Sequence record: DRR378314_109 | Reading direction: 5' to 3' (one strand) | Length of the DNA: 64,000 nt | Shown here: positions 1,631 through 24,806 of the stretch, piece after piece | Layout: the number at the start of each line of letters is the position of its first letter | How positions within the stretch are numbered: the stretch's first letter is position 1 | The notes under the pieces: model-generated | The model's database searches: none | Seen by the model: only the letters and a program-made list of their open reading frames with translations | Told to the model about the DNA's origin: nothing | Program-made: the position numbers and the translations under genes

Positions 1631-2524
1631 ATGTATTGCCCATCACAACCCCTTCTTATCGGCGTTGACGGCGGCGGCACCGGGTGCCGCGTTGCCATTG
1701 GGACTCATGTAGAAGGTGTGCTGGGCCGTGCGGAGGGTGGCAGTGCAAATGCGACCTCCAACTTTGAAAAAACCATAGAAAACGTAACTTCAACAGTGGA
1801 GAAGGCGGTGGTTGCGGCTGGTATCTCCCTTGAGGTTTTATCTGATGCCCACGCACATCTTGGGCTTGCCGGGGCGATTTCGGATGAAGACAAGCTGCGG
1901 GTTTCCAGGGCGCTGCCCTATGCCGAATCTGTTGTGACGGATGACCGTGCAACAACGGTCTTTGGGGCTCTGCGCGGGGATGACGGATATGTTGTATCGG
2001 TTGGCACGGGTACGATTGTGGGCGGCAGCACGGCCGGTGCGTTCCGGTTTGTCGGGGGTTGGGGGTTTCAGGTGTCGGATCACGGCTCGGGTGCCTGGCT
2101 GGGCCGCAATATCCTTGAGCAGGTCCTGTTGGGCTATGATGGCCTTCTGGAATCTTCTGCTCTGACGGAGACTGTGTTTTCTCGATTTGATAACGACCCG
2201 AGCAAGATTGTTGCCTTTTGCAGGACCGCGACACCGGGGGCATTTGCTACATTGGCTCCGGCCATTGTCGCGGGCGCGGGCCGTGGTGATCCGATTGGGA
2301 AGGACCTGATGGCGCGCGGGGCAGGGTATCTGATGCAGGGGCTCGTCCGGCTTGGATTTCAGGCGGGGGATAGCCTCTGTCTGATTGGCGGCCTTGGACC
2401 ACATTACGCTGACTATTTCACCGCCGGTTCTCTGAAAGGGCACATTCCTGCCAAGGGAAGTGCATTGGACGGGGCCTTTGCGCTGGCGCGATCTGGTAAA
2501 ACCAAACTGCGGGGACATAAATGA
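1631..2524 (+). CDS. nagK: BadF/BadG/BcrA/BcrD-family N-acetylglucosamine kinase
   Basis: GVDGGGTGCR, VGTGT, GGWGFQVSDHGSGAWLGR motifs; nag context. Confidence 0.8.
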   Translation: MYCPSQPLLIGVDGGGTGCRVAIGTHVEGVLGRAEGGSANATSNFEKTIENVTSTVEKAVVAAGISLEVLSDAHAHLGLAGAISDEDKLRVSRALPYAESVVTDDRATTVFGALRGDDGYVVSVGTGTIVGGSTAGAFRFVGGWGFQVSDHGSGAWLGRNILEQVLLGYDGLLESSALTETVFSRFDNDPSKIVAFCRTATPGAFATLAPAIVAGAGRGDPIGKDLMARGAGYLMQGLVRLGFQAGDSLCLIGGLGPHYADYFTAGSLKGHIPAKGSALDGAFALARSGKTKLRGHK

Positions 2525-3282
2525 CAGGTATTGTAGAATTCCTTGAGCCGCAGAAGTGGCTGCGGGCAAACGGCGGCCCGCGCTATGTTCAATTGCGCAA
2601 ACGGCTGAGTGAAGGGGTAGAGCAAGGTATTCTGGAGGCGGGCACACCGCTGCCGCCTGAACGGGAGATTGCCACCATTACCGATCTGTCCCGCGTCACC
2701 GTCCGAAAGGCCATTCATGCGCTGGCCGAGGACGGGACAATTGTTCAGAAACAGGGATCCGGTTCCTTTGTCGCCTTTGACACGCCAAAGATAGAGCAAT
2801 CCCTGTCCCGTCTGACTTCGTTTAGTGAGGATATGTCGCGGCGCGGCATGGTTTCTTCAAGCGTGTGGCTGGAGCGCGGCATCATGATGCCCTCCCCGGA
2901 GGAGGTGTTGGCGCTCGCTTTGTCGCCGGATGCCTCGGTCGCGCGTATTTCGCGGCTGCGCATGGCTGATGACAAACCAATGGCGATTGAACGCGCCTCG
3001 CTTTCCACTGAAATGTTGCCAAACCCCTTGCTGGTTGAAACCTCTCTTTACGAGGTTTTGGGCAAGGCGGGCCTGCGCCCGGTGCGCGCGTTGCAGAAAA
3101 TTTCGGCGATCAACCTGCAAGCGGACAATGCCGCGCTTCTTGATGTGGAACCCGGAATGGCCGGCCTGCGGATCGAACGCACGTCTTATCTTGCTGACGG
3201 GCGCATCGTTGAATTCACCCAATCCATCTATCGCGGAGACGCCTACAATTTTGTAGCGGAACTTCGCCTTGCCAAAGAATAG
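2521..3282 (+). CDS. nagQ: GntR/HutC (UTRA) regulator of GlcNAc utilisation
   Basis: LPPERE...SRVTVRKA...QGSGSFV HTH; LTSFSEDM and YRGDAY UTRA domain; operon position. Confidence 0.8.
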   Translation: MTGIVEFLEPQKWLRANGGPRYVQLRKRLSEGVEQGILEAGTPLPPEREIATITDLSRVTVRKAIHALAEDGTIVQKQGSGSFVAFDTPKIEQSLSRLTSFSEDMSRRGMVSSSVWLERGIMMPSPEEVLALALSPDASVARISRLRMADDKPMAIERASLSTEMLPNPLLVETSLYEVLGKAGLRPVRALQKISAINLQADNAALLDVEPGMAGLRIERTSYLADGRIVEFTQSIYRGDAYNFVAELRLAKE

Positions 3283-3292
3283 GACCGCCCAA

Positions 3293-4324
3293 ATGACGAC
3301 CGCTGAAACCCAAATGCGCCGTGAAGTGCTGGAAATTCCCGCTGCTGTAGACCGGCTTTTGCAGAACGGCGGCGACGATGTGCGCCGTGCGGCAGAGGCG
3401 CTGCGCGACAGATCCCCCGCCTTTATGGTGAGTGTTGCACGCGGGTCTTCCGACCATGTTGCGACATATTTGAAATACGCCTCTGAACTGTTGATGGGGG
3501 TTCCGATTGCGTCGATTGGGCCTTCCATCGCGTCAATCTATCAGCGCGAGCTCAACCTTAAAGGCGCTGCCTGTCTGTCAGTTTCGCAATCCGGGAAAAG
3601 CCCGGACATTGTTGAAATGGCGCGGATGGCGCGGGCCGGCGGTGCCTTGTCCATCGCGATGACAAATGATCCTGACAGCCCGCTGGCCAAGACGGCTGAT
3701 CATACGCTTAATCTACATGCAGGGCCGGAAATCAGCGTTGCGGCGACCAAGACCTTTGTCAATTCTGCTGTTGCGGGGATCTGGTTGCTGGCCGAATGGG
3801 CGCAAGATGACGCGCTGCGCGCTGCAATCTATGATTTGCCGACATTGCTTGAAAAGGCGGTTCATATTGATTGGGCCGAGGCCCGAGCGGCCGTTGCTGA
3901 GCGCAACTCTGTGTTCTGCCTTGGCCGGGGTCCGGCCTTTGCTATCTCCAACGAAGCGGCGTTGAAGTTCAAGGAGACCTGCCAGATCCATGCGGAATCT
4001 TATTCCTCCGCCGAGGTGCTGCACGGGCCGGTATCCATCGTCGACGGGGGCTTCCCAGTGATCGCCTTTGCGGCAAACGACGCGGCAGAGGAGCCTCTGG
4101 CCGAAGTCGCGGATGCGCTTGCTGCCAAAGGGGCTACGGTTTTCGCAACCAGCCCGAAAGCCACACAGGCGATCTCTCTTCCCACCACACGGACCGGCCA
4201 TGCGTTGACGGACCCGATTACATTGGTGGCAAGTTTTTATGCTTTGGTTGAACGCACCGCAGCCTCTCGTGGCATCAACCCCGACACACCGCGCCACCTC
4301 AAAAAAGTGACCGAAACGATATGA
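3293..4324 (+). CDS. SIS-domain glucosamine-6-phosphate deaminase (NagB-II, GlmS C-terminal-like)
   Basis: ARGSSDH, SQSGKSPD, AGPEISVAATKT, EAALKFKE, HGP, PRHLKKVT; start at ATG after AGGA. Confidence 0.85.
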   Translation: MTTAETQMRREVLEIPAAVDRLLQNGGDDVRRAAEALRDRSPAFMVSVARGSSDHVATYLKYASELLMGVPIASIGPSIASIYQRELNLKGAACLSVSQSGKSPDIVEMARMARAGGALSIAMTNDPDSPLAKTADHTLNLHAGPEISVAATKTFVNSAVAGIWLLAEWAQDDALRAAIYDLPTLLEKAVHIDWAEARAAVAERNSVFCLGRGPAFAISNEAALKFKETCQIHAESYSSAEVLHGPVSIVDGGFPVIAFAANDAAEEPLAEVADALAAKGATVFATSPKATQAISLPTTRTGHALTDPITLVASFYALVERTAASRGINPDTPRHLKKVTETI

Positions 4325-5457
4325 GCCGCACAGTCAAAGCCTATATCGGTGCCACGATTTACGACGGCCAAAACCTGTTTGAAAAACATGCCCTGATGGT
4401 TGATTCAGACGGGCAGGTGAGCGTGCAGCCGCAAGGTGCTTTACCACAGGGCTGTCCAAGGGTGGCCATGGACGGTGGCGTGATTGCACCCGGATTTGTC
4501 GACCTTCAGGTGAATGGTGGCGGTGGGGTAATGTTCAATGACGATCAATCGATCAATGCATTGCGCGCCATCGCCGAGGCCCATGCCACGACTGGCACAT
4601 GTGGTATCCTGCCCACGTTGATCACCGATACCCCGGAGAAAACCAGCGCAGCAATCAAAGCTGTGGAAGCCGCAATCGCTGAAAAACTGCCCGGTATCAT
4701 CGGCATCCACCTTGAGGGGCCGCATTTGTCCATTGCCCGGAAAGGCGCCCATGATCCCAATCTGATCCGCGCCATGACGGAGGATGATCTGGCGCTGATG
4801 CTTGACGCCGCTGAGCGGATTGCAAACGTCATGGTCACAGTCGCACCCGAGAACACAACGCTTGCTCAGATCAAAACAATGGCTGATGCGGGTATCATCG
4901 TTTCCTTGGGCCATACGGATGCTGATATGGAGACCTGCCATGCTGCATTCGACGCCGGGGCACGATGTGTGACCCATCTGTTTAATGCGATGAGTCAATT
5001 GGGGAACCGCGAACCGGGGCTGGTTGGTGCCACGCTTTCACGTCCCGAGGTCTATGCAGGCTTGATCGCTGACGCTATCCATGTCCACCCGGACACGATG
5101 CGGATTGCACTTGCGGCCAAGCCCAAGTCAGAGCGCATTTTTCTGGTCACTGACGCCATGGCCACTGCAGGCTCTGCTATCGATCGATTTTCGATCAACG
5201 GACGTGATGTCTTCCGCAAAAACCAACGTTTGACCTTGGCGGATGGCACGCTTGCAGGGGCTGATCTGACCATGCCCCGCGCGGTCGAGGTCATGATGGA
5301 AGCTGTAGGTGACGACCTTTCCCAAGCGATCAAACGTGCAACTTCAACCCCGGTTGATCTTCTGCGCGAACCGGGATCATTGGGCGGGTTTTCCGGCATG
5401 TTCCCCGCGGTGCAATATCTGAAAAAGGGGTCTTCCCGCCCGGTGGTGCTTTCATAG
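4321..5457 (+). CDS. nagA: N-acetylglucosamine-6-phosphate deacetylase
   Basis: PGFVDLQVNG, HLEGP, GHT, THLFNAM, DAIHVHP, TDAM, GTLAG motifs. Confidence 0.92.
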   Translation: MSRTVKAYIGATIYDGQNLFEKHALMVDSDGQVSVQPQGALPQGCPRVAMDGGVIAPGFVDLQVNGGGGVMFNDDQSINALRAIAEAHATTGTCGILPTLITDTPEKTSAAIKAVEAAIAEKLPGIIGIHLEGPHLSIARKGAHDPNLIRAMTEDDLALMLDAAERIANVMVTVAPENTTLAQIKTMADAGIIVSLGHTDADMETCHAAFDAGARCVTHLFNAMSQLGNREPGLVGATLSRPEVYAGLIADAIHVHPDTMRIALAAKPKSERIFLVTDAMATAGSAIDRFSINGRDVFRKNQRLTLADGTLAGADLTMPRAVEVMMEAVGDDLSQAIKRATSTPVDLLREPGSLGGFSGMFPAVQYLKKGSSRPVVLS

Positions 5458-5592: not shown

Positions 5593-5991
5593 TTAGGTCA
5601 GTGGTTTGTAGGCGATGGCGTCAATTTCGACTTTGGCATCGACCATGATTTGTGATCGTACGGTGGAACGTGCCGGGCCGCCATTTGGGAAATAGCTGGC
5701 GTATACTCGGTTAAAGGTCCAGAAATCGCGCGGGTCATCAAGCCACACACCAACTTTTGCCACATCGTCCAATGTGCAATCTGCAAGTGCCAGCGCCGCA
5801 ATCAGGTTTTCCATTGTACGTCTGGTCTGGCTTTCGATACCGCCATCTTCGATTTCACCATTTTCTTTCATGGCGACCTGTCCAGAGATAAAGATCAGGT
5901 CCCCGGCGCGCACCGCCGGAGAGAAAGGCAAGGGCTGCCCACCAGCACCTGTGCGGTCCGCGCCGATGCGTTCAATCGTTTTTTGTGTCAT
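5593..5991 (-). CDS. RidA/YjgF family enamine/imine deaminase
   Basis: PFSPAV, ISGQ, FNRVYASYF, PARSTV (catalytic Arg present), VEIDAIA; start MTQKT overlaps kinase stop. Confidence 0.9.
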   Translation of the reverse strand: MTQKTIERIGADRTGAGGQPLPFSPAVRAGDLIFISGQVAMKENGEIEDGGIESQTRRTMENLIAALALADCTLDDVAKVGVWLDDPRDFWTFNRVYASYFPNGGPARSTVRSQIMVDAKVEIDAIAYKPLT

Positions 5992-6902
5992 GCTGTTTGA
6001 TCCTTCAGTTTTTGAATGTCGTCTGGGTAGGGTATCGGCGCAACCGCACCGAACCCGGTTGTGGAAACTGCGGCACCTGCGTTGGCTGTGCGGGCCGCCT
6101 CTTCCGGGTGTAAGCCTCGCAGCAGGCCGGACAGGAATACGCCGTTGAAACAATCACCCGCGCCGGTGGCATCCACTGCGTTGACCTTAAATGCGGGCAG
6201 GGTCGCGATTGCGTCACCAGTGGAAACCGCCACACCGGCGCTGCCCAGTGTCAGCGCAACCACACGGGCACCAAGAGAATGATAAAACCCGATGATCTCA
6301 TCCGGGGCGTGTAACCCGGTCAACCGGCGGGCATCGTCCAGCCCGGGTAGGGCAATATCGCAAAGGGTCATGGCCTCATGGGTGACCTGACGGGCCTGTT
6401 CCAGCGGCCAGAGTTGCTCTCTCAGGTTGGGATCAAAGGCAACTTGCACATTGTTTTTGCCAGCAAGTGACATGGCATCAAAGGTGGCCGCGCGCATTGA
6501 CCCGCTTACCGCCAAGCCGATGGCGGATGTATAGAATATGCCTGCGCCCAGGATGGCCTGTTCGGGCATGTCACCGCTGTCGATCCGGCTGCAAGCAGAG
6601 CCCCGGCGGCGATAGGTGAAATGATGCCCGTCCTCATCATGGTGCACAAAATACAGCCCGGTATCCTGCCCCTCAATCGCCCGGACAAAGGTGGTTTCGA
6701 CCTTCTCACGGTGCCAAAGGGTGATTAGATCCTTCCCGAACCTGTCCGCGCCCACATGGGTGATCATCCCGGTGCGCGTGCCCTGTCGCGCCGCAGCAAT
6801 GGCAACGTTGGACACATCACCACCAAACCCCATTTGGTACAGCCCGTTCGCCTGCCCATTCAATTCAATGAGCGGTTCGCCCAGACAAATAAGATCGCTC
6901 AT
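5988..6902 (-). CDS. PfkB-family sugar kinase, 2-keto-3-deoxygluconate kinase-like
   Basis: GEPLIE, GGDVSNVA, TGLYF, FDPNLR, DATGAGDCF. Confidence 0.8.
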   Translation of the reverse strand: MSDLICLGEPLIELNGQANGLYQMGFGGDVSNVAIAAARQGTRTGMITHVGADRFGKDLITLWHREKVETTFVRAIEGQDTGLYFVHHDEDGHHFTYRRRGSACSRIDSGDMPEQAILGAGIFYTSAIGLAVSGSMRAATFDAMSLAGKNNVQVAFDPNLREQLWPLEQARQVTHEAMTLCDIALPGLDDARRLTGLHAPDEIIGFYHSLGARVVALTLGSAGVAVSTGDAIATLPAFKVNAVDATGAGDCFNGVFLSGLLRGLHPEEAARTANAGAAVSTTGFGAVAPIPYPDDIQKLKDQTA

Positions 6903-6908
6903 GGTCAG

Positions 6909-7964
6909 CTACCAAACCTTGCCACGGGCCGTGACGGATTGCGGGCCAATACAGGTGTCGCCCCGGACCAATATCACCTGATCAAGCATATTGCTGACCA
7001 CACAGGCGTGGTTCGGGACAATGCGGATGCGGCTGCCAACAGCAAGGTTGATGTTATCGGCCGTCAGAACCCCATGTTCTTCTGACAATCCGGCGATTGT
7101 AATGTCCGGGCGCCCAAGTACATGACCATTACCATTCAGGCCTAGCAAATCCGAGGTCAGAACCTTGGTGCCACAATCAATCACCGCGCGGTCATGGGCG
7201 GGAACAGAGATCACCGTCGCCAACACCGTAAGGGCACAATCCGCCCAGTCGCAGACGCCCCGCACCTGAAGGGAGCGGTCGTTGTAGATATAGGTCCCGA
7301 TCCGGTATTCCGTGGCAATTGATACATTCTGGGCCTGCCACATTCCCGGAGAGCCGCCGTTGGATATAACCGATGCTTTCAAACCGCAGTTTGCCAGCGC
7401 GTCCACCGCTTCGTTTAACCAGCTCTGAACCTTTTGATCCGCCCCCACAGGTGGATAGGTCATAAGCCCCGCGAACCGCAGCCCGGCCAGCCTGTCAATG
7501 TAGTCTGCCAACCCTGCGGCTTCCTCTGGTGAGGTAACCCCGCATCTTCCCGCCCCTGTGTCACATTCAACGAGCACATCAAGAGGGGTTTGCGCATCGG
7601 CGAAGGCACCACTCAGCCCGTCGGCAACGCTGCGGTTGTCCGCAACCACCGACAGGGTAACCTTATCTGCCAGCCTGCGCAGCCGTTTCAGTTTGCCTGC
7701 GCCGATGATGTTGAAGGTGATCAAGACATCAGAAATACCACCTTCGGAAATCATCGCCTCGGCTTCACTGACCTTTTGGCAGGTAATGCCAATAGCCCCG
7801 GCTGCGATTTGAGCCTGCGCGAGCATCGGTAGTTTATGGGTCTTGATATGCGGACGCAGTTTAAGGCCGTGATGATCACAATGGGCCTGAAACTTCCTGA
7901 TGTTGGCCTCTGCGACGTCGAGGTCAATCAGGACAGCGGGGGTATCAATTTGCGTAAACATCAT
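6909..7964 (-). CDS. Fold-type III PLP enzyme, D-serine dehydratase/D-threonine aldolase (DSD1) family
   Basis: LRPHIKTHK PLP-lysine motif, GRCG, SEEHG, PNHAC metal ligands. Confidence 0.88.
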   Translation of the reverse strand: MMFTQIDTPAVLIDLDVAEANIRKFQAHCDHHGLKLRPHIKTHKLPMLAQAQIAAGAIGITCQKVSEAEAMISEGGISDVLITFNIIGAGKLKRLRRLADKVTLSVVADNRSVADGLSGAFADAQTPLDVLVECDTGAGRCGVTSPEEAAGLADYIDRLAGLRFAGLMTYPPVGADQKVQSWLNEAVDALANCGLKASVISNGGSPGMWQAQNVSIATEYRIGTYIYNDRSLQVRGVCDWADCALTVLATVISVPAHDRAVIDCGTKVLTSDLLGLNGNGHVLGRPDITIAGLSEEHGVLTADNINLAVGSRIRIVPNHACVVSNMLDQVILVRGDTCIGPQSVTARGKVW

Positions 7965-9427
7965 ACGACCTCTTCCGGGAAGGGGGTGTCAACAATGGGC
8001 CAGATGGCCCGTATCAGACGGGTGTATTTGGTCTTTGCCGGGTCGTTCGGATAGGGTCCGTCTACAGCGGCATAGAGGATATCAGCCGCCACTTTCGCAA
8101 AGGCACCGTGGAAATGATTGGTGGATTTGACGATCAGGATCTTACGAGAGGCCGGATCAATGCCCAGATTGGAAAACAGATCAGGGGAAAACGCCTGTGC
8201 CCGATTGGAGTTCAACACGACGTCAATCCCGCCCAGCCTTACCACGGCGCAATCCCCTAAGGGTACGATTGAACTGCCAAAACTCTGAACAGCGTTCTTT
8301 GCAACATTTTGAACAGTGACGGTGGCATCGATCGGGGCGCCCGCATGCGCGGATGTTTTGCCGCCAAAGCGCAGGTCCAGCTGCGCACCAACACCGGCAG
8401 CGTGACACAGGCGCACCGCCATCGGATCCCAGATCGTACCCAAGGCGACAGAGGTCAGGCTCATTTCCAATGCTGTGCGCAGCATGATTGTTGAATCCCC
8501 CGCGACGCCGCCACCGGGATTGTCCCAGACATCGGCAACAACAACCGGTCCCGCCTTTGCTTTTGCCGCTTTTGTCAGCGCGTCTGAAACACTTAGGAAA
8601 TCCGGTTTTGTTGTCCCCCTGAATGAAAACAATTCTTCTCCCAGTTCACGGGCAATCCTGTCACCCTTGGCTTTATCCTTGTCTGTGACAACAATCGTCT
8701 TGGCACCCAGATCGGGGGAATCTCCGGCCATAAACCCGTGAATTGCGGAGGTTGAAAGAACCTCGCCCGCTGCCTCAAGTGCTTTCATTCTGTCCACAAA
8801 ACCACGCATCGGGGCGCGGCTTGTCGGCAGAACATCAATCATTCGCACATCAAAAACCGACAGGACGGGCGAAATCTCACCCCGTGCCGCCCGCAGTGTC
8901 AGGTCAACACAGGCTTCGCCGGTTTCGACAAAATCCGTATGGGGAAACTCTTTGAAAACAGTGACCACATCAGCATTCTTTACCCGTCGGTCACTCAGAT
9001 GGCTGTGTGGGTCGAATGTCACGCCAATGCGGGTTGATGGGCCCGTAATCTGGCGGACAGCTTCGATCAGCTCGCCCTCGCAGTCAACATGTCCCTCGGC
9101 GATCATGGCCCCGTGGAGCCCCAGAACAACAGCGTCGACGGGTAGGGCGGCGCGCAGTTGCTCCAGCACTTCATCGCGCAGATGGATCCAAGTGGATTTG
9201 TTCACCAGCCCGCCAGGCTCTGCCCAGGTTGCGGTGCCTTCTATCAGGTCAATTTCACCCGCAGCAGCACGTGATCTGAGAGCGGGAAACACTGCGCTGC
9301 ATAATGTTGGTGTGTCGGGATGCGCGCCGGGGGGCGCATAAAAGCTCTGGGTGAAATCGGAAAAATCCGTGCGCAGAGGTGAAAACGTGTTGGTTTCCGT
9401 AGCGATTGAAGCACAAAAGACCCGCAT
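7961..9427 (-). CDS. M81-family metallopeptidase/amidohydrolase (MlrC-like)
   Basis: ETNTFSP, LHGAM, DPHSH, FPHTD, DNPGGG, VKSTNHF; start MRVFCAS after AAGGAAG. Confidence 0.88.
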   Translation of the reverse strand: MRVFCASIATETNTFSPLRTDFSDFTQSFYAPPGAHPDTPTLCSAVFPALRSRAAAGEIDLIEGTATWAEPGGLVNKSTWIHLRDEVLEQLRAALPVDAVVLGLHGAMIAEGHVDCEGELIEAVRQITGPSTRIGVTFDPHSHLSDRRVKNADVVTVFKEFPHTDFVETGEACVDLTLRAARGEISPVLSVFDVRMIDVLPTSRAPMRGFVDRMKALEAAGEVLSTSAIHGFMAGDSPDLGAKTIVVTDKDKAKGDRIARELGEELFSFRGTTKPDFLSVSDALTKAAKAKAGPVVVADVWDNPGGGVAGDSTIMLRTALEMSLTSVALGTIWDPMAVRLCHAAGVGAQLDLRFGGKTSAHAGAPIDATVTVQNVAKNAVQSFGSSIVPLGDCAVVRLGGIDVVLNSNRAQAFSPDLFSNLGIDPASRKILIVKSTNHFHGAFAKVAADILYAAVDGPYPNDPAKTKYTRLIRAIWPIVDTPFPEEVV

Positions 9428-9515
9428 TAAGACTTCCTTGAGAGAGAAACTTGTCGGGCAAACAAACACTGTTCGCCCGACCTGCCGGCCATCTGTTGAC
9501 AGCCGGAGGGAGGTA

Positions 9516-10553
9516 TCAGTCGAGATAGTTTGCGGCATTGGCCGCTGCGACTTCTGCCTTGAACATGGTGAGCAATTCCAGCGCGCCGGCATCCATGTTT
9601 TCAGTAACATGGGCCTCAAACGCGGGCTGTGCCGCCTCTGCCATTGCCTGGCGCTGTTCAGCGGTCAGGGCCGTGACCTCGATCTTTTCCATCAGACCCG
9701 CAAGGCCGCGATCAGAGGCTTCGATGATCCGGCTCAGGCCGCGGCTGGCGGTGACGCAGTTCTCTGCTGCGGTGTGGACAGTAGCCCGTTCGGCATCTGT
9801 CAGACCTTCATAGAACCCGCGGTTCATCATAAAGGTATAGGGAGAGAACAGGTGGTTGGTCAGCGTCATATATTGCTGCACCTCAGCGAAATTGGCGAAT
9901 GAGATGATCGGAACCGGGTTCATCTGGCCGTCGATCACCCCTGTCTGAAGGCCGGAATAAACTTCACCCCAGGCCAGCGGATAGGCTTCGGCACCCAGGG
10001 ATTGCATGATTTTCTGATGCGACGGCAGCGTCATGGTCCGTACACGGATGCCGTCGAAATCTGCAAGATCGGCGATTGGACGCTTGGAGTTGGTCACGGC
10101 AAAGAAACCGCCGGTATCCGGGAAACCCAGGACAACAACATCGGAAAGCTCGGCCTCGATATCGGCTTTCAATGCTGCGCCGAACGGGCCGTCAAATACA
10201 GCATAGGTGGACGCGTTGCCGTCAAAGGCGAAGGGCAGGTTCAAAACATCAATGCGCGGATAGTAGCTTGCCAGGGCACCGGTCGATGTCAGCGTCGCCT
10301 GAATGATCCCGTCCTGCAATTGCTGCACATGTTCTGCGGCAGAGCCAAGCTGATTGGACCCAAAGACCTCAACGGTGACGGAACCGTTGGTGTCTGCGGT
10401 CACAAGGTTGCTGAACACGGCAGTACAGGCATGTGCAGGGTTTTCGAATGGGTCCGTTTTATTGTCATGACCAAAGCGGATGACGCTTTCCGCAAAGGCA
10501 GCACTTGCGGTCATTGTGGCCGCAACGGCCAGCCCTGTGATTATCGTTTTCAT
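9516..10553 (-). CDS. dctP: TRAP transporter substrate-binding protein
   Basis: Signal peptide, QLG, LPFAF, GIRVRTM, WGEVYSGLQTGVIDGQMNP; GGAGG RBS before MKTII. Confidence 0.92.
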   Translation of the reverse strand: MKTIITGLAVAATMTASAAFAESVIRFGHDNKTDPFENPAHACTAVFSNLVTADTNGSVTVEVFGSNQLGSAAEHVQQLQDGIIQATLTSTGALASYYPRIDVLNLPFAFDGNASTYAVFDGPFGAALKADIEAELSDVVVLGFPDTGGFFAVTNSKRPIADLADFDGIRVRTMTLPSHQKIMQSLGAEAYPLAWGEVYSGLQTGVIDGQMNPVPIISFANFAEVQQYMTLTNHLFSPYTFMMNRGFYEGLTDAERATVHTAAENCVTASRGLSRIIEASDRGLAGLMEKIEVTALTAEQRQAMAEAAQPAFEAHVTENMDAGALELLTMFKAEVAAANAANYLD

Positions 10554-10603
10554 AGTTTCCTCCAGTTGGTTTTGGTTGTTTTCAGGTGATGGTTGGGTCG
10601 AAT

Positions 10604-11887
10604 TTATTGTGCATAGCCCAGCATCCGGGGCAGCCACATTGCGGCGTCCTCCCAGAATGCGAATGCAAAAAGGATCGCAACTTCGGCGGCAAGAAACGGC
10701 AGAAGCTTGATGGAAATGCGCTCGATTTTTTCGCCCGTCACAGAGGACAGAACAAAAAGACATGCTCCGACCGGTGGGGTCATAAGCGAGATATTCAGCG
10801 CCAGAACAAAGATGATCCCGGCATGGATCGGTTCAAGTCCAACGCTTTCGGTCAGGGGCACAAGGACAGGGGCCAGAATGATCAAGATCGCCGTGATATC
10901 CATGATCATCCCCACAACCAGCAGCAGACAGATGATCAGCGCAATCACGGTATAGCGGTTTTCGGACAGGCCAAGCACCGTCTCTGCAATCAGCTGTGGA
11001 ATGCGCTCGAAACTCATCCACCAGCCAAGGATCCCTGCAAAGGCGATGATGACAAAAATCACCCCCATGATGCGCGCGGTGCGGACCAACATCATGTAGA
11101 AGCTTTTGAAGGTTAGCGTCCGGTAGACAAAGACGCCGATGAACAAGGCATAGGCTACGGCGATTGAAGCAGCTTCGGTCGGGGTGACAATCCCGCCAAG
11201 GATACCGCCCAGAATGATGACCGGCATAGCAAGTGCCGTCAGGGATGATTTAAATGTCACCCAGATTTCGCGGGGTGTGGCCCCCCGTTGCGCTTTTGGC
11301 AGGTTCTCGCGTTTGCCGCCGATGGCAATGACCGCCATGCAGACAATGCAGATGACCAAGCCGGGCAAAATGCCGGCGGCAAACAATCCGGCAATCGAAA
11401 CGCCCATAAGCGATCCGTAGACAACCATGAGGCCGGAGGGGGGAATGGTCGGCCCGATGATAGAGCCAGCAGCGGTCACCGCGCAGGCATAGTCACGGTC
11501 ATACCCTTCCTTGACCATCGCAGGGACAAGTGTCCGGCCAAAAGCCGCGGCATCTGCGGTTGCGGATCCGGTAAGCCCGGCAAAGAATACAGAGGCGAGC
11601 ATATTCGTATGCGCCAGCCCACCGCGGAACCGGCCAACCAGCACCTGCGCCAATTTGACAAGGCGGCTGGTGATGCCGATGTCGTTCATGATTTCACCGG
11701 CAAGGATAAAGAACGGCATGGCGAGAAATGGAAAGATATTCAGACCGTTAAAGATCTTGCTGGGGCCGACCGCAAGAAAGCTGCCCCCACCCATATCGAT
11801 CAGCCCGACCACCCCGGCAAGGCCGATAGCAAACCCGATGGGCATGCCGAAGAGAACCAAAATGACAAATGCAAATGCGACAATCAT
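10604..11887 (-). CDS. dctM: TRAP large permease
   Basis: AMPFFILAG, GSATAD, IPPS, TPTEA, TPPVG. Confidence 0.93.
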   Translation of the reverse strand: MIVAFAFVILVLFGMPIGFAIGLAGVVGLIDMGGGSFLAVGPSKIFNGLNIFPFLAMPFFILAGEIMNDIGITSRLVKLAQVLVGRFRGGLAHTNMLASVFFAGLTGSATADAAAFGRTLVPAMVKEGYDRDYACAVTAAGSIIGPTIPPSGLMVVYGSLMGVSIAGLFAAGILPGLVICIVCMAVIAIGGKRENLPKAQRGATPREIWVTFKSSLTALAMPVIILGGILGGIVTPTEAASIAVAYALFIGVFVYRTLTFKSFYMMLVRTARIMGVIFVIIAFAGILGWWMSFERIPQLIAETVLGLSENRYTVIALIICLLLVVGMIMDITAILIILAPVLVPLTESVGLEPIHAGIIFVLALNISLMTPPVGACLFVLSSVTGEKIERISIKLLPFLAAEVAILFAFAFWEDAAMWLPRMLGYAQ

Positions 11888-11891
11888 TGAT

Positions 11892-12410
11892 CTACCCCTC
11901 CGTCACGTTTGGTTTGAAGGTGGGCGGGTGGTCGATGTGACTTCCCAGATCGCGGATCAGCACGAGGACCAGTTGAACGGAGCATAAAATCGCAGCGACC
12001 GGGATTGCGGCATAGAATGGCGCAAGGCTCGCCCCGAAAATCATCGCCTCACGTGGTGCCCCGCTTTGGGCAAAGCCAATTCCATAGTATGCGACATAAA
12101 GAAAAAGCGAGAGTGACAGAACATCCATGAGGATCAACAACCCATACCGGAGCTTGGCCGGGATGAAGAAGATAAATGCTGTTAAGCCAATGTGTTCCCG
12201 TCTCGAGATGCCGGAGGAAACCGCCAGCATCGCCGCCCAGATCATCAGGTAACGGGCGATGACCTCTGGCCATGGCAATTGCCAGTGGAAATAGTAACGG
12301 TCCATCACTCCAAGCCAGACATCAAGCACAAGGGCCAGCATCAGGGCTGCGACAATGGCCTCAACCACGTGATTTATCTTTGTGCTTACAATCGCGGCCT
12401 GCTTGCGCAT
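11892..12410 (-). CDS. dctQ: TRAP small permease
   Basis: 4 TM segments, RY...WPEVIARYLMIW, EHI motif. Confidence 0.9.
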   Translation of the reverse strand: MRKQAAIVSTKINHVVEAIVAALMLALVLDVWLGVMDRYYFHWQLPWPEVIARYLMIWAAMLAVSSGISRREHIGLTAFIFFIPAKLRYGLLILMDVLSLSLFLYVAYYGIGFAQSGAPREAMIFGASLAPFYAAIPVAAILCSVQLVLVLIRDLGSHIDHPPTFKPNVTEG

Positions 12411-12429
12411 TCCGATCCCCTCCCGGATC

Positions 12430-12569
12430 TGTAATTCAGTTTCATTAGGAAGGGTCTTGATTGGAAAAGCAACTAATTTATGTTACTTAGTTTCATGAAT
12501 TCGCATAAATATCAGTAAAACCGCGAATTTTTCTAGGAGTTAATGGCTGAGTTACGTAATTAAGTTACA
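12430..12569. promoter_or_regulatory. Three TGTAA-N5-TTwCA-like dyads, probable RpiR/HexR operators
   Basis: tgtaattcagtttca 12430-44; tgttacttagtttca 12481-95; cgtaattaagttaca 12555-69. Confidence 0.6.
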
Positions 12570-12594
12570 CGCCAAATATGTTTGGAGCACGACT

Positions 12595-13530
12595 TTGCAG
12601 GATCACAAGACTTCGGATGATGTATCAGTGCGGCCGATTCGTGGCGGAGCCTCGGGCACGGCAGATGTCATTTCCGCGCTTCAGCGCCATGACGGTCAGT
12701 TTGCCACTCAGGAACAGCGTGTCGCTGACTATGTGAAAGCGCATTTGGAAGAGATCAGCGATATGACCATCGCCGATCTTGCGCGTCATTGTAACGTCAG
12801 CAAACCCACCGTGGTTCGCTTTTGCCGAACGCTTGGTTGTGGCGGATACCGTGAATTCAAATTGCGTCTGGCGCAGAACCTCGCGGTGAGCATGCAGTAT
12901 CTGTCAGCCTCATCAGCCCCTTTGGCATCCGGCGGGGATTCAGCGTTTGATCAGGTTTTCAGTGCGATCCATGCCAATGCCGTTGCGGTCCGCGAGCAGC
13001 TAGATCAATCGGCCTACGCCAGCGCCAAATCCGCTCTGCTTCAAACGCGGCATCTCTTGTTTGCGGGCATTGGCGGCGGTTCGTCGACGGTTTCACAAGA
13101 GGGCGCCAATCGCTTTTTCCGTTTGGGCATTCCATCGGTGGCGACCAGCGACAGCTATATTTTGCAAATGCGCGCGGCTACTTTGCGGCAGGGGGATGTG
13201 CTTTTCCTGATCTCGGCCAGTGGTGAGGCGGATGCCCTTGTCGGTGCGGCGGAAATCGCAAACGGATATGGTGCCACCACAATTTGCGTAACAGCACCGG
13301 GTACGCGTCTGGCGAAGGTGGCGCGAATCCCATTGCTGGTTGATTTGCCTGAGGATCAGAATATCCACAAACCAACTGCGTCGCGTTATATTCACCTGAT
13401 GATTGTTGATGCGCTTGCCTTTTCAGTTGCACAGGAAATGGCGCAGGAGACAACGGAGAATCTGCGCCGCATCCGCGCTTCTCTGACGGCCTATCACGGA
13501 CGGACAGGACCGCAACCTTTGGGGGACTAG
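12595..13530 (+). CDS. RpiR/MurR family regulator (HexR-like)
   Basis: VSKPTVVRFCRTLGCGGYREFK HTH, SIS domain ISASG, PEDQNIHKPTASR; start uncertain. Confidence 0.88.
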   Translation: MQDHKTSDDVSVRPIRGGASGTADVISALQRHDGQFATQEQRVADYVKAHLEEISDMTIADLARHCNVSKPTVVRFCRTLGCGGYREFKLRLAQNLAVSMQYLSASSAPLASGGDSAFDQVFSAIHANAVAVREQLDQSAYASAKSALLQTRHLLFAGIGGGSSTVSQEGANRFFRLGIPSVATSDSYILQMRAATLRQGDVLFLISASGEADALVGAAEIANGYGATTICVTAPGTRLAKVARIPLLVDLPEDQNIHKPTASRYIHLMIVDALAFSVAQEMAQETTENLRRIRASLTAYHGRTGPQPLGD

Positions 13531-15569: not shown

Positions 15570-16535
15570 TTAACGTCCCTTGATCTTGATTGAAAAGGTT
15601 CGGCGTGCACCGCGTGGTGGTTTCGGAAAAGGAGAGGCCTTTCGAATGACGCGCAGGGCGGCTTTATCCAGAGTGGCAGAGCCAGAGGAGCGTGCGACCG
15701 ACGCGCTGCTCAGGCTTCCGTTTGCGCCAACGGAGAAAGAGACAACGGTTGTGCCGCGGGCACTCACCCGTGGCTTGGGCACCCGCGCAATGCGGCGCAT
15801 CACCTTGCCGGGATAATTGCTGGCTGCTGCATTGCCGCTTTGTGCTGAAGCCTGTTTGCTCTGGCCCTGTGATTTGGCCTTGGCTTTCTGGTTGTTGCCC
15901 TTGGCCGTCCCTTTGGTGTTGTTGCGTTGGGCGTTTCCACGCGGTGCCTTGGTCAGTTTTTGCTTTTGCTTTTGCGGCTTGGGGCGGGCGGCGGCCACTT
16001 TTGCCGCTTTTTCGGGGTCCCGTCGTTTTGGACGTATCGACAGCGGTGGAGCGGTTTCATCAGGGGCTTGCGCAACGATGGTTTCCAACGGTGGTGGTGT
16101 TACCGGGGCTGTCACCGGCGGGGATGGGGCCATTTGCGGCACAACTGCATCCGGTGCCGCAGAAATCACAGGCGCGGTGCTTTCTGGTGTCACAGCAGGC
16201 AGTGGTTCTGGTGCCATTGCAGTCGCCGTTAGCGGGGCTTCCACCGGCACAGGCTCAGCTACATCGGCTTGCGTCGGTGGCGTTTCCGCGACCTGCTCGG
16301 CCAAAGGTGTCTCTTCGGGCGGTGTAGGTTCCAAGGGTGCGTCTTCGACCGGTTCAGCGGTCAAGGTCCCGGCTGACATATCCTCGAAGGCGGTACCAAT
16401 CCGCGCCTCAGCCACAGTGCCGCCGCCTTCCATTTCGACCACAGACCGGGGTGCGGCAAGCTGCATGCTCGTCGCGAGAACAACGGTTGAAACGCCCAGA
16501 GCGATGATTTTGGCGGATGTGGAACTGCGGATCAT
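15570..16535 (-). CDS. tonB: TonB energy transducer
   Basis: N-terminal TM, Pro/Glu- and Lys-rich linker, C-terminal SSGSATLDKAAL...PFPKPP. Confidence 0.88.
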   Translation of the reverse strand: MIRSSTSAKIIALGVSTVVLATSMQLAAPRSVVEMEGGGTVAEARIGTAFEDMSAGTLTAEPVEDAPLEPTPPEETPLAEQVAETPPTQADVAEPVPVEAPLTATAMAPEPLPAVTPESTAPVISAAPDAVVPQMAPSPPVTAPVTPPPLETIVAQAPDETAPPLSIRPKRRDPEKAAKVAAARPKPQKQKQKLTKAPRGNAQRNNTKGTAKGNNQKAKAKSQGQSKQASAQSGNAAASNYPGKVMRRIARVPKPRVSARGTTVVSFSVGANGSLSSASVARSSGSATLDKAALRVIRKASPFPKPPRGARRTFSIKIKGR

Positions 16536-16921
16536 TTGAGCCCCCGTTCGGTGACAAGCACCACCTTTTGCGCTCCGGCGCTGCGCAGATCGCGGGTGAG
16601 TGAGACCAATTCCTTGGCCGGTAATGCGCGGTCCGGTACCAGACGTATCACGGCGCGCTCCTCCTCACTGAGGGTCGCAATGAAACTGGCGGCGTCCTGC
16701 TGATCGGCACCGCGAAAGGCGATGCGCCCGTCGGAATGCACAACCAGCGCGTCCGGTGGCGCGCGCCCTTCAAGATCCTGTGTCTGAACCAGACGCAAAG
16801 ACGGATCAAGCGGCTGCGCAAGGGTGCCTGCCACCATGAAGAAAACCAGCATCAGAAAGACAATGTTGATCAATGCGATGGTGGGTTCGCGTTGGGGTTT
16901 CCCCTTGGCCAGTTTACGCAT
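16532..16921 (-). CDS. exbD: Biopolymer transport protein ExbD
   Basis: IALINIVFLMLVFFMV TM; RLVPDR. Confidence 0.85.
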   Translation of the reverse strand: MRKLAKGKPQREPTIALINIVFLMLVFFMVAGTLAQPLDPSLRLVQTQDLEGRAPPDALVVHSDGRIAFRGADQQDAASFIATLSEEERAVIRLVPDRALPAKELVSLTRDLRSAGAQKVVLVTERGLK

Positions 16922-16924
16922 GGC

Positions 16925-17302
16925 TCAGCCTCCCAAGACCGTGACGCGCAGTTTGGGCAACCGACGTAACACGACCAAAAGATCCGTCAGCCGTTGGGAA
17001 TCCACCTGTGCCTCAAGGCTGACGAGAACAACCGCACCATCCTCGGCTTCGGACAGAGAGGATTCAACCAAGGCATCAAGGCTGACGTCCTGACCGTTTA
17101 ACCCGATGGTGTTCTCCTTCAGCTGAAGGAATAGCGGCGGCGTTTCAGAAGGCGCAACCGCGCCAGAGCCGCCCGCCGAAAGTTCGACTTCGGAGAATTT
17201 GGAGAAGGTCGAGGTCAGCATGAAAAACAACAGCAGTAAAAAAATTACGTCAATCAGGGACGTCATCGACAGCTTGCGCCGCCGTGTCCGGGCCCTAGCC
17301 AT
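16925..17302 (-). CDS. exbD: Biopolymer transport protein ExbD
   Basis: MTSLIDVIFLLLLFFML TM with conserved Asp. Confidence 0.9.
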   Translation of the reverse strand: MARARTRRRKLSMTSLIDVIFLLLLFFMLTSTFSKFSEVELSAGGSGAVAPSETPPLFLQLKENTIGLNGQDVSLDALVESSLSEAEDGAVVLVSLEAQVDSQRLTDLLVVLRRLPKLRVTVLGG

Positions 17303-17948
17303 GTGCAGTTGCCTTATCTGCGACCGTGGCAGGAGGGAGGCGTTTCGGGTGCAGCACCGTCAGAATCGCCTGATCTGCAATCACCCTCTCGGCTTCCATA
17401 CGGCCCTCAAGCCAGCTGAGGACAAGGGCGGTTGGCATAGCAACCACCAACCCGACGGCGGTTGTCAGCAAGGCCACCCAGATGCCGCCTGCAAGGATAG
17501 AGGGATCAACCTGCGCGCCTGCGTCCTGTAGGGATTGGAAGGCCTCGATCATACCCAATACGGTGCCAAACAGGCCCAGCAACGGGGCCAGCTGCGCCAC
17601 GGAATCGAGAAAGCGAAAACCACGTTCAAGCTTGGCAAAGCGGGTTTCGGCATCTGCCTGCAAACGCTCTGCCATCTGCGCAGAGGCCGTCAGCGTCATA
17701 TCAACCACCGGGGCAAGGTAGCTTGTGGAGCGCCCCAGGGCTGTATGGGCCTCTTTCGGATCTCCCGCATCCCATGCGGTGACCGCCTCGCGCAGCGCGG
17801 TGTGTCGACCAACACCTGCCTGCCAGAATTGCCAGATTTTATACAGGGCAACCGCCAGCGTCAAAACCGCGACACACATCAAGATCACCACCACAGGGCC
17901 GCCGATTTCGGCAATCTGGCGGATGGGTTCAAACCAGACAGGCATCAT
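17295..17948 (-). CDS. exbB: MotA/TolQ/ExbB proton channel
   Basis: APLLGLFGTVLGMI, GGIWVALLTTAVGL. Confidence 0.92.
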   Translation of the reverse strand: MMPVWFEPIRQIAEIGGPVVVILMCVAVLTLAVALYKIWQFWQAGVGRHTALREAVTAWDAGDPKEAHTALGRSTSYLAPVVDMTLTASAQMAERLQADAETRFAKLERGFRFLDSVAQLAPLLGLFGTVLGMIEAFQSLQDAGAQVDPSILAGGIWVALLTTAVGLVVAMPTALVLSWLEGRMEAERVIADQAILTVLHPKRLPPATVADKATAHG

Positions 17949-18367
17949 CCGATCACCTCAATCGCGGTACGTGTTGATGGCATCAGCTTCGTCGAGCAAT
18001 CCCCTTCGGCCACTCCTTCGCCTTCACAGGTATTGGCACCGTTGAACAGGACGCGCCCCAATTGGTCACAGGCGAGTTCAGGCACCGCGAATTGTCTGAC
18101 GCGGGGACGGGTGGGGGGCAGGGAGCCGAAATCAAACAGGGTCAGCCGGTTGACCTGACCACTGACATCGAACAACACGGTTTCATAGACTGCACGGTCG
18201 ATTTGTGTGTCCAGACCATTGGTGATGACAAAGGTAAGTGTGCACGCGGATTGGGTTGTTTGCACGGCATTCAACTCGACCGATATCTTGCCTGTCAGAT
18301 CGGTTTCCTGCGCAAGGGCCGCTGATCCCATCGCCATCGCACACAGGTATACCCATAGCCGTTTCAT
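17945..18367 (-). CDS. Secreted hypothetical protein (4 Cys in mature part), first gene of exb/tonB operon
   Basis: AAGGA RBS, signal peptide MKRLW...ALA, stop overlaps exbB start. Confidence 0.75.
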   Translation of the reverse strand: MKRLWVYLCAMAMGSAALAQETDLTGKISVELNAVQTTQSACTLTFVITNGLDTQIDRAVYETVLFDVSGQVNRLTLFDFGSLPPTRPRVRQFAVPELACDQLGRVLFNGANTCEGEGVAEGDCSTKLMPSTRTAIEVIG

Positions 18368-18603
18368 CGCCGTTTCCTTCGTCAAGTGTATGGAGGTGAC
18401 CTTGCGGGCAGCCCTGTTTGCAAGGCTGTTTGGCTGGATCCCATTTTTCGCCATCTGTGCCGCGAATTTTTGAAGGTTTCAAGTCTTGCTACACTGATGG
18501 CGACGCGACCTCCCCGATTTTTAGCGACGAGATTAGGTGAATTTTCTATAATTAATTATATAAATCAACTTGTTATCTTAAGGTGCGGCGGAGCTGATAT
18601 TTT

Positions 18604-18620
18604 CCGACTTTTTTTGTCAG
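18604..18620. promoter_or_regulatory. Iron-Rhodo-box-like dyad
   Basis: ccgactttttttgtcag resembles CTGAC-N7-GTCAG; upstream of exb/tonB operon. Confidence 0.55.
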
Positions 18621-18672
18621 CCAATTCGCCGCCGCGCTTGATCTAACTCGCCGCAACGGCGCTGTCAGACAT

Positions 18673-18960
18673 TCAGGTTGTTTCCCAGGTCATCGTTTTC
18701 ACCTCTTCGCGAAATGCGAAGGTTTCCAGATGGCTGTCGATCACGTGATGTACAGCCTCCACTGCTTTTTCATCCTCGACATCGCAGGTCACCATCAGCC
18801 TGTCTGCCTCTGCGGTCATATGTGCGGTCCCCATGACAAATGCGGCCCAGCCTTTGTTTTCGTCAAAGGAAACCTCGATCTTATGGCCAAAGTGTTTGCA
18901 CAGCTGTTGTAGGTATTTCGACGCGTGAGTGGTCTTGAGATGGCCTGTGGTGGTGAGCAT
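18673..18960 (-). CDS. DUF2218 protein
   Basis: ASKYLQQLCKHFGHK, IDSHLETFAFRE; typical of siderophore loci. Confidence 0.85.
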   Translation of the reverse strand: MLTTTGHLKTTHASKYLQQLCKHFGHKIEVSFDENKGWAAFVMGTAHMTAEADRLMVTCDVEDEKAVEAVHHVIDSHLETFAFREEVKTMTWETT

Positions 18961-19075
18961 GAAAAAGTCCTTTGATGTGACAACTGGACAATTGTTCTAT
19001 GCATTCGTAGATAGATTTCAATACCCCACAGCACAGCCAACAATCGTGAGCCATGCGTTAAGAAAGGACCTTAAC

Positions 19076-19966: not shown

Positions 19967-19970
19967 ACCT

Positions 19971-22626: not shown

Positions 22627-22633
22627 CGAAAGT

Positions 22634-24779: not shown

Positions 24780-24806
24780 CGACGCTCTGTTGCTCTGGCT
24801 GCGACC

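Follow-up and report, generated by a model that had tools for sequence, protein, structure and literature searches.

A TRAP-M81-PLP enzyme operon as a candidate counterpart of the N-acetyl-D-glucosaminate (ong) pathway in the roseobacter group

Layout and conservation of the cluster

Between positions 5593 and 13530, a 64,000-nucleotide stretch of DNA from sequence record DRR378314_109 (the whole stretch is called the window below) carries a cluster of eight genes. The minus strand encodes a tripartite ATP-independent periplasmic (TRAP) transporter (dctQMP), an M81-family metallo-amidohydrolase, a pyridoxal phosphate (PLP) enzyme, a PfkB sugar kinase, and a RidA protein; a MurR/RpiR-family regulator gene is divergent from them. 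We propose that this operon most likely encodes an alphaproteobacterial form, from the roseobacter group, of the ong pathway, which uses N-acetyl-D-glucosaminate (GlcNAc1A), the aldonic acid released by oxidative chitin cleavage (PMC9537276).

Open reading frames (ORFs) of the window were scanned with Pfam and NCBIfam profiles (Table 1). An earlier note, made from the letters of the sequence, had listed the same eight genes, with a DSD1-type PLP enzyme and an RpiR/HexR-like regulator, and every gene and domain was found at its place; the active-site arginine of RidA, reported there as intact, is seen in the PAR motif. The starts of the RidA, M81, and DctP genes were set from the Pfam match positions and homologue alignments, as the longest ORFs begin too early. 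ATGA overlaps occur at the M81/PLP and kinase/RidA junctions and the remaining gaps measure 4 to 88 nt, so the minus-strand genes are read as one operon. Its sole sizeable gap, the spacer between dctP and the M81 gene, has a minimum free energy of -39.4 kcal/mol (z = -4.9 against 200 shuffles), and its hairpins may act as a partial terminator or an mRNA stabilizer. Apart from them, scans for sigma-70 promoters and terminators stayed at chance level.

Table 1. Features of the cluster and of the adjoining N-acetylglucosamine (GlcNAc) locus, in window positions
Feature	Position	Strand	Basis or remark
RidA-family enamine/imine deaminase, OngD-like	5593..5991	minus	PF01042 at 91 bits; Arg of 'PAR' kept
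PfkB sugar kinase, KdgK/fructokinase branch; proposed 2-keto-3-deoxygluconate (KDG) kinase	5988..6902	minus	PF00294
Fold-type III PLP enzyme, DSD1/D-TA family, dehydratase type; proposed D-glucosaminate ammonia-lyase yielding KDG	6909..7964	minus	PF01168 + PF14031
M81-family (MlrC-like) cytoplasmic metallo-amidohydrolase; proposed N-acetyl-D-glucosaminate deacetylase	7961..9427	minus	PF07364 + PF07171
dctP-M81 intergenic spacer, two strong hairpins	9428..9515	minus	Folding energy against shuffles
DctP, TRAP periplasmic solute-binding protein	9516..10553	minus	PF03480, TIGR00787
DctM, TRAP large membrane subunit	10604..11887	minus	PF06808; TIGR00786 above cut-off
DctQ, TRAP small membrane subunit	11892..12410	minus	PF04290; 59-81% identical in related loci
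Divergent control region, three TGTAA-N5-TTACA-like palindromes; likely RpiR operators	12430..12569		Motif scan, orthologous spacer alignment
MurR/RpiR-family regulator, OngR-like	12595..13530	plus	PF01418 (HTH_6) + SIS; exact start codon uncertain
MurQ	572-1477	minus	Pfam/NCBIfam
NagK	1631-2524		Pfam/NCBIfam; convergent with ridA
GntR/UTRA regulator	2521-3282		Pfam/NCBIfam; beside nagK
NagB-II	3269-4324		Pfam/NCBIfam; GlcNAc locus
NagA	4321-5457		Pfam/NCBIfam; GlcNAc locus

Conservation of the neighborhood, which the earlier note had left to be checked, was followed across 80 loci gathered with the M81 orthologue alignment (the best 80 of 272 relatives, with M81 proteins 70-82% identical), on which the window proteins were placed by tblastn at a coverage above 0.5, the kinase being counted at an identity of at least 45%. 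The genes co-occur, and the core is kept in most of the loci: the PLP gene adjoins M81 in 69 of the 80, RidA in 65, and TRAP and RpiR in 73 each; contig ends account for several of the missing cases. The arrangement RpiR/DctQMP/M81/PLP/RidA is found in 37 loci, and the same arrangement with the kinase between PLP and RidA, as in the window, in 22 (23 if L031, with no RpiR in range, is included). Four loci have RpiR/DctQMP/M81/PLP and six RpiR/DctQMP/M81 only; the remainder are other partial forms or short contigs. The conserved core therefore consists of RpiR, TRAP, M81, PLP, and RidA. The kinase, counted in the earlier note as a member of the operon, is indeed present and ATGA-coupled in the window, but only 23 of the 80 loci have it, which makes it accessory to the cluster.

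Homologues of the M81 protein are numerous (more than 4,389 matches). The best 120 are 73-99% identical and, where named, come from marine Rhodobacterales and Stappiaceae. Among 301 Rhodobacterales genomes sampled, 63 have an M81 homologue (E <= 1e-60), at an identity of at least 64% in 17 and of 49-56% in 7. The entire cluster lies on plasmids of 73-110 kb in Phaeobacter gallaeciensis DSM 26640 (L109, pGal_C110) and in a Paracoccus sp. (H1), and so is mobile within roseobacters. Three loci (L005, L041, and L065), with the labels Nocardioides marinus, Thiolinea sp., and Candidatus Competibacteraceae, hold clusters with M81 proteins 74-81% identical to the roseobacter ones; these suggest a wrong label, contamination of the assembly, wrong binning of contigs, or else a recent transfer.

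Relation to the ong pathway

In Pseudoalteromonas prydzensis ACAM 620, the ong cluster was characterized by genetics and biochemistry as a system for oxidative chitin utilization (Jiang et al. 2022; PMC9537276). In the sections of that paper drawn on here, GlcNAc1A derived from chitin oxidized by lytic polysaccharide monooxygenases (LPMOs) enters through the SSS transporter OngIT; OngB, of the D-aminoacylase family, deacetylates it; and OngC, a fold-type III PLP enzyme that also accepts D-Ser and D-Thr, carries out a deamination without water that yields KDG, which KdgK phosphorylates with no involvement of a phosphotransferase system (PTS). The same sections describe OngD, a RidA protein, as essential with a role unknown to the authors, and OngR, a MurR/RpiR protein, as the repressor of the cluster, and give the taxonomic range as Gammaproteobacteria and one betaproteobacterium only. 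The structure of OngB was solved in 2025 (PDB 9KB1 and 9KB3; PMC12017989).

The pathway was thus already in print when the earlier note called it undescribed. The same holds for its second claim of novelty, a PTS-independent counterpart of the Salmonella dga route, since the ong pathway works without a PTS and already fills that place (PMC9537276). Compared with the dga route, the pathway proposed for the window reaches the same end product, 2-keto-3-deoxy-6-phosphogluconate (KDPG), from glucosaminate, but without a PTS and with deamination before phosphorylation. What is new here, as judged from sequence comparison, is a variant in a new lineage, with an M81 protein predicted at the OngB step, a TRAP transporter for the SSS symporter, and a PLP enzyme of a different subfamily. 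In the literature searched we found neither a non-microcystin role for an MlrC homologue nor a TRAP importer for a GlcNAc1A pathway, and the fitness-browser literature on glucosaminate held nothing bearing on the M81 cluster.

Comparisons with ong used a Klebsiella pneumoniae cluster (L110), obtained by a protein search of a plasmid collection with the window PLP enzyme, and three OngB-bearing genomes (G021, G239, and G383), in place of the P. prydzensis OngC, OngR, and OngD sequences. Relatives, among them Parasedimentitalea huanghaiensis (G003), Phaeobacter sp. (G004), and Tritonibacter mobilis (G005), served as proxies for the window organism, and it is these relatives that the results for eda, LPMO, and OngB concern. 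The Klebsiella cluster encodes an RpiR protein, an aldolase, a kinase, an SSS transporter, RidA, a D-aminoacylase, and an 'amino acid deaminase'. Comparison of the D-aminoacylase with P. prydzensis OngB (9kb1) gives 5e-164, and with the classical D-aminoacylase 1m7j 1e-139; the enzyme is thus closer to OngB, which identifies the cluster as ong-type.

The regulator and the RidA protein tie the two cluster types together. The window and Klebsiella RpiR proteins are 34% identical over their full length and share a C-terminal QPLGD; the RidA proteins are 40% identical. When the Klebsiella RpiR was searched against the complete genomes of G003 to G005, the gene of the TRAP-M81 cluster was the best match in all three (1e-46 to 1e-50, with a runner-up of 1e-16 or weaker), and the same was true of RidA (1e-25 to 1e-28, runner-up 1e-10). 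OngB-like genes of 60-64% identity are present in G021, G239, and G383, and in the first two the best matches of the window RpiR and RidA proteins are the genes immediately flanking OngB. The window kinase is not homologous to that of Klebsiella. A Klebsiella OngB-type query found no OngB homologue in G003 to G005 (best E value 3e-7, over ~60 residues only), and Pfam and NCBIfam found no D-aminoacylase-family OngB gene in the window operon; relative to ong clusters, it is the M81 gene that occupies the place of OngB. We read this as probable common descent of RpiR and RidA with their ong counterparts and an apparent exchange of the deacetylase and the transporter, and probably of the PLP enzyme too.

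The likeness to ong lies in the proposed set of cytoplasmic roles, namely an N-deacetylase, a fold-type III PLP deaminase with His-x-Cys, RidA, a sugar-acid kinase, a divergent or embedded MurR/RpiR regulator, and the lack of a PTS; in addition, a gene of family GH20, to which OngA belongs, adjoins 9 of the 80 window-type loci. The two types differ as well. The deacetylase candidate belongs to the M81 metallopeptidase family, whereas OngB is a D-aminoacylase of the amidohydrolase superfamily; the importer is TRAP rather than an SSS symporter; no TonB receptors or GH20 gene are dedicated to the window cluster; and the host of the window type is alphaproteobacterial, of the roseobacter group. 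Eda is encoded in all five relatives' genomes searched, and LPMO_10 in none of the five.

Predicted proteins and their amino-sugar context

The M81 protein scores above the gathering thresholds of both PF07364 (264.5 bits) and PF07171 (187.5 bits) and aligns over nearly its full length with microcystinase C (MlrC; 7ylq) at 2.8e-106, but it reaches only 380.9 bits against NF041767, the NCBIfam exception model for MlrC, with a cut-off of 999 bits. The Glu of microcystin is a D-residue with a free alpha-carboxylate, so the bond cut by MlrC is an N-acyl-D-amino-acid amide, which is the bond type of OngB. MlrC hydrolyzes this Adda-Glu amide in the cytoplasm (PMC12474180). The window protein resembles MlrC (7YLQ) in its two-domain family, its cytoplasmic location, and a proposed target amide, that of GlcNAc1A, of the same N-acyl-D-amino-acid type; it differs in having no mlrA, mlrB, or mlrD partners, a different conserved neighborhood, a marine host, and a small sugar acid as its proposed substrate. 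No mlr-type partner and no other peptidase family was among the Pfam matches to the window ORFs scanned.

In its metal motif, PNHAC, the PLP enzyme agrees exactly with D-threo-3-hydroxyaspartate dehydratase (3wqc); aldolases have S/G-H-V/C-D-P there. In the HMMER alignment the position of the aldolase base, His193, is occupied by Asp, and the region of the PLP-binding lysine aligns with all solved relatives ('RPH.K.HK'). Aldolases of the AxDTA type use His347, Asp349, and His193, whereas chicken D-serine dehydratase has His and Cys and lacks His193, as described in the relevant part of a structural report (PMC4401734). P-N-H-x-C is kept in all compared homologues of at least 42% identity; homologues inside bhc clusters, with BhcA, BhcB, and BhcD neighbors, have H-C-D and are only 30-37% identical, and the window enzyme scores 210.5 bits with the NCBIfam model of BhcC, far under its 690-bit cut-off. 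By these motifs the PLP enzyme is predicted to be a dehydratase, not an aldolase, and the conserved RidA partner fits beta-elimination. The DSD1-type assignment made in the earlier note agrees with the two domains, the His and Cys ligands, and the absence of His193. The enzyme shares with 3WQC and with the DSD1 structure 3ANU the type III fold, the PF01168 + PF14031 domain pair, the His/Cys metal ligands, and beta-elimination on D-configured beta-hydroxy amino acids as the presumed chemistry, but matches them at only 5e-35 and 2e-23, respectively, and its proposed substrate is a six-carbon polyhydroxy amino acid.

A class sample of 401 genomes searched with the PLP enzyme gave 20 matched genomes. 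Their contexts include one cluster in which M81, PLP, RpiR, and RidA genes are coupled to a Dpp-type ATP-binding cassette (ABC) transporter (G034), three bhc clusters, and otherwise unrelated surroundings; no ong cluster appears among the 20, because OngC-type proteins fall below the E-value cut-off of that search. On pSymB of Sinorhizobium meliloti 1021 (L108, 764187-783239), a PLP dehydratase gene of 60% identity lies divergent to genes for a polar-amino-acid-type ABC transporter, RidA (58% identical), and an IclR regulator; there is no M81 gene. Growth of S. meliloti on D-glucosaminic acid is recorded in the part of the literature consulted (PMC4207669). We regard the system as a candidate for the use of free D-glucosaminate, or of D-Ser or D-Thr, in a model organism for which fitness data exist.

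Of the NCBIfam models, the kinase scores best with that of a KDG/2-keto-3-deoxygalactonate (KDGal) kinase (171 bits, below the 400-bit cut-off), and its PDB relatives include the KDG kinases 3lhx, 2var, 1v19, 1wye, and 4e69. In RidA, the Arg of 'GPARSTV' aligns with that of 'KPARVAV' in PH0854; the protein scores 90.3 bits with TIGR00004, under the cut-off of 106.25 bits. A second RidA-family gene, at 42266-42688 between TetR-like and MerR-like regulators, is unrelated to the operon. A Sec-type signal peptide can be read off the translation of DctP, whose nearest solved relatives are 4p47, which is ligand-free, and 7bbr, with 2-keto-3-deoxy-D-gluconate as the ligand reported in the source consulted (PMC11668362). 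The equivalents of the carboxylate-binding residues Arg173 and Asn213 are conserved in 73 of 73 DctP orthologues; the equivalent of Arg152 is Phe.

The regulator has the HTH_6 and SIS architecture of HexR, an RpiR-family protein that senses KDPG and controls central carbon metabolism, and HexR is also its best NCBIfam model (PRK11302). The earlier note's designation of it as HexR-like holds for the family and for the top model; the score of 186.8 bits lies under the 296-bit cut-off, and the protein is cluster-specific and orthologous to OngR-type regulators. Three TGTAA-N5-TTACA-like sites (12430-12444, 12481-12495, and 12555-12569) lie in the 184-bp spacer between rpiR and dctQ, and they form conserved blocks across 72 aligned orthologous spacers. 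The whole window holds nine such matches, with 10.7 expected by chance, and three of them fall within one 140-bp stretch. The motif resembles what we take to be the HexR-type operator, and the three palindromes are likely operators of the RpiR protein.

Several surroundings of the cluster point to amino sugars. A GH20 beta-hexosaminidase gene directly adjoins it in the nine loci mentioned above; in seven of them, all from Shimia, it lies upstream of rpiR, and in L004 and L066 it follows ridA on the downstream side. In L007 and L004, the two loci on which Pfam was run for this region, GH20 is preceded by GNAT and Dpp-type ABC transporter genes; the latter are presumably of the chitobiose type. 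The window itself has no GH20 gene, and T. mobilis has one ~10 kb from the cluster. The GlcNAc locus that the earlier note had placed beside the operon is there (nagK-nagR-nagB-nagA, convergent with ridA, and murQ beyond), although such an arrangement is rare elsewhere, being found in only one of the 80 loci (L058). With that locus, the clusters that have GH20 or nag genes alongside come to 10 of the 80; an eleventh (L075) depended on a weak, 26% SIS match and was not counted. Action of GH20 on oxidized chitobiose would give GlcNAc for nagK, nagA, and nagB and GlcNAc1A for M81, PLP, and RidA, which would explain why both gene sets adjoin in the window. Use of peptidoglycan fragments (N-acetylmuramic acid peptides), suggested by murQ, was set aside; the adjacency occurs in 1 of the 80 loci, and a DSD1-type enzyme requires an alpha-amino acid with a beta-hydroxyl.

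More distant M81 genes extend the picture. Around those of 48-66% identity (10 loci), a PLP gene adjoins in seven and RpiR in nine. Five Rhodobacterales loci (L116-L120; M81 52-55% identical) combine M81, PLP, and RpiR with GH20, SDR, a GFO/IDH/MocA oxidoreductase, MFS, and a sugar ABC transporter; they have a second M81 paralogue, ~30% identical to the first, and, in four of the five, NagA-like and PF01182 genes as well. These loci may represent an LPMO-independent oxidative route from GlcNAc or chitobiose. In L077 and L078 the M81 gene is followed by a PfkB kinase, and in L077, the one of the two scanned with Pfam, the next gene encodes a lactonase. M81 genes of 39-44% identity (39-41% in L123-L127) stand beside other TRAP DctM and DctP genes, with no dehydratase-type PLP gene; this arrangement indicates that the pairing of TRAP with M81 recurs for other substrates, in different systems.

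The rest of the window has other contents. An iron-uptake block at 15570-26849 comprises TonB (15570-16535), two ExbD and one ExbB genes, a siderophore-type ABC transporter (Peripla_BP_2, two FecCD, and an ATPase; 18929-22601), and TonB-dependent receptors at 22634-24589 and 24807-26849. It is followed by imelysin, ferritin-like, di-heme peroxidase, and DUF1513 genes (28248-35658). A second TRAP system (DctP, 47232-48227; DctM, 48681-50090) lies beside a gene of the phosphoenolpyruvate mutase/isocitrate lyase family, and a third (DctPQM, 53840-56687) by aldehyde dehydrogenase and 3-hydroxyisobutyrate dehydrogenase-like genes.

Proposed pathway, alternatives, and significance

In the proposed pathway, DctP would bind the carboxylate of GlcNAc1A in the periplasm and DctQM would import it. 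The cytoplasmic M81 protein, as a non-orthologous replacement of OngB, would strip the N-acetyl group to leave D-glucosaminate, from which the PLP dehydratase, a fold-type III enzyme of the Zn/Mn type, would eliminate water at the beta position; hydrolysis of the resulting enamine/imine by RidA would release KDG and ammonia. The PfkB kinase, or a kdgK encoded elsewhere where the cluster has no kinase, would form KDPG, to be split by Eda. The divergent OngR-like protein would repress both promoters at the three TGTAA-N5-TTACA sites until its effector builds up, both the effector and the operator function being predictions from context. As the relatives apparently have no LPMOs, they would scavenge GlcNAc1A or oxidized chitobiose from other chitin degraders. 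The chemistry given in the earlier note, deacylation followed by PLP-dependent beta-elimination, a kinase, and the Entner-Doudoroff pathway, fits the gene content, the motifs, and the orthology with ong, except that the kinase step belongs to an accessory gene.

We hold different parts of this proposal with different confidence. A pathway for an N-acyl D-amino acid or amino-sugar acid that runs through M81, the PLP dehydratase, and RidA is quite probable. N-Acetyl-D-glucosaminate appears to be the best candidate substrate, and that it is the substrate and the M81 protein its deacetylase is somewhat favored by the genomic context, from which both the compound and the reaction are deduced.

A number of observations weigh against the proposal. 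We know of no M81 enzyme with activity on a sugar acid. Identity between the window PLP enzyme and the Klebsiella OngC-type protein is only 28%, with His-x-Cys in both, and in the relatives' genomes an OngC-type query matches the cluster gene no better than a paralogue, so the PLP enzymes of the two cluster types belong to different subfamilies. In G383, closer paralogues of the window RpiR and RidA sit elsewhere, not beside OngB. The cluster kinase is absent from 57 of the 80 loci, and five genomes that lack it have only 30-40% identical PfkB paralogues elsewhere. Six of the 80 loci have an M81 gene with no PLP gene downstream although DNA is available there (L018 was inspected). The NagA-like deacetylase gene and the two M81 genes of the L116-L120 clusters imply that M81 could there cleave a different amide, and two variants (L101 and L112) use Dpp/Opp-type ABC transporters, which are carriers of peptides too.

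Some of these points would be met by a different substrate. If the compound imported were D-serine or D-threonine with an N-acyl group, or a small peptide with one of these residues at its end, M81 would free the D-beta-hydroxy amino acid, and the PLP enzyme and RidA would convert it to pyruvate or 2-oxobutyrate with no need of a kinase, in keeping with the many loci that lack one. M81 is a peptidase family by classification, D-Thr, D-Ser, and D-3-hydroxyaspartate are the substrates of those relatives of the PLP enzyme with solved structures, and OngC itself is described as deaminating D-Ser and D-Thr (PMC9537276). The Dpp/Opp-type transporters of L101 and L112 would suit such a substrate, as would the S. 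meliloti arrangement of PLP, polar-amino-acid-type ABC transporter, and RidA genes, which fits D-Ser or D-Thr as well as it fits glucosaminate; an amino-acid-type transporter, however, is no argument against glucosaminate, which is an amino acid too, and the reported growth of S. meliloti on D-glucosaminic acid (PMC4207669) points the other way. So do the SIS domain, of sugar-phosphate type, in a regulator that is the best-match counterpart of OngR, the insertion of a PfkB kinase into the operon in 23 of the 80 loci, the GH20 or nag genes at 10 of them, and the GH20 and oxidoreductase genes that accompany the distant modules. We consider a D-Ser or D-Thr conjugate unlikely. Another amino-sugar acid in a pathway of the same shape, either N-acetyl-D-galactosaminate or an aldonate with a non-acetyl acyl or aminoacyl group removed by M81, is an idea that we regard as doubtful. 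It would accommodate the bifunctional KDG/KDGal model that best matches the kinase, the annotation of a KDGal kinase and an aldolase in the Klebsiella ong-type cluster, the large acyl group, Adda, on the known M81 substrate (PMC12474180), and the two M81 genes and NagA-like gene of L116-L120, which suggest more than one amide. GlcNAc1A alone, though, has a natural source documented as abundant and a homologous pathway that has been proven, as set out in the source consulted (PMC9537276), and the neighboring GH20, Dpp-type transporter, and nagA, nagB, and nagK genes indicate chitin-derived sugars.

The identity of the two central enzymes leaves less room. A PLP enzyme acting as a lyase of the D-threonine aldolase type would yield glycine and an aldehyde or aldose, and the kinase would then phosphorylate that sugar. 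By score, the closest solved relatives are in fact aldolases and BhcC (4v15 at 2.2e-50), BhcC is also the top NCBIfam match, and NCBI labels the orthologues 'D-TA family PLP-dependent enzyme'. Yet the ligands are His-x-Cys rather than His-x-Asp, His193 aligns to Asp, the genuine bhc-cluster homologues are distant H-C-D proteins, the BhcC score is far below its cut-off, and a conserved RidA has no part to play after aldol cleavage; we regard an aldolase as highly improbable. Hardly credible is a true microcystinase C in a cluster that degrades microcystin-derived peptides: the nearly full-length match to 7ylq speaks for it, but the MlrC model is missed by a wide distance, no other peptidase or mlr family is found among the Pfam matches of the scanned window ORFs, and TRAP, PLP dehydratase, RidA, and RpiR genes are what is conserved around M81, in a marine host of the roseobacter lineage.

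The proposal that GlcNAc1A is deacetylated by the M81 protein has consequences beyond this locus, and the de-N-acetylase role of M81 is the part worth testing. If true, it would provide the first physiological function for the large M81 family outside microcystin degradation and a clean case of non-orthologous enzyme displacement, and 'microcystinase C' and 'D-TA family enzyme', names assigned automatically, would be corrected. As a more tentative extension, M81 'metallopeptidases' outside mlr clusters might in practice be de-N-acylases of D-configured amino acids and amino-sugar acids rather than peptidases, with the window protein as the first carbohydrate de-N-acetylase of the family; abundant roseobacters and Stappiaceae without LPMOs might harvest the aldonic-acid ends released by the LPMOs of Vibrio and Pseudoalteromonas, and the L116-L120 clusters might further mean that some Rhodobacterales form the aldonate by dehydrogenating GlcNAc or chitobiose. 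Chitin is among the largest pools of carbon and nitrogen in the sea. A single route for its oxidized products has been described, with a reported restriction to Gammaproteobacteria. Use of the products of its oxidation would, if the proposal is true, extend from Gammaproteobacteria to a dominant group of marine heterotrophs that leave the attack on chitin to others and would link the two groups by cross-feeding.

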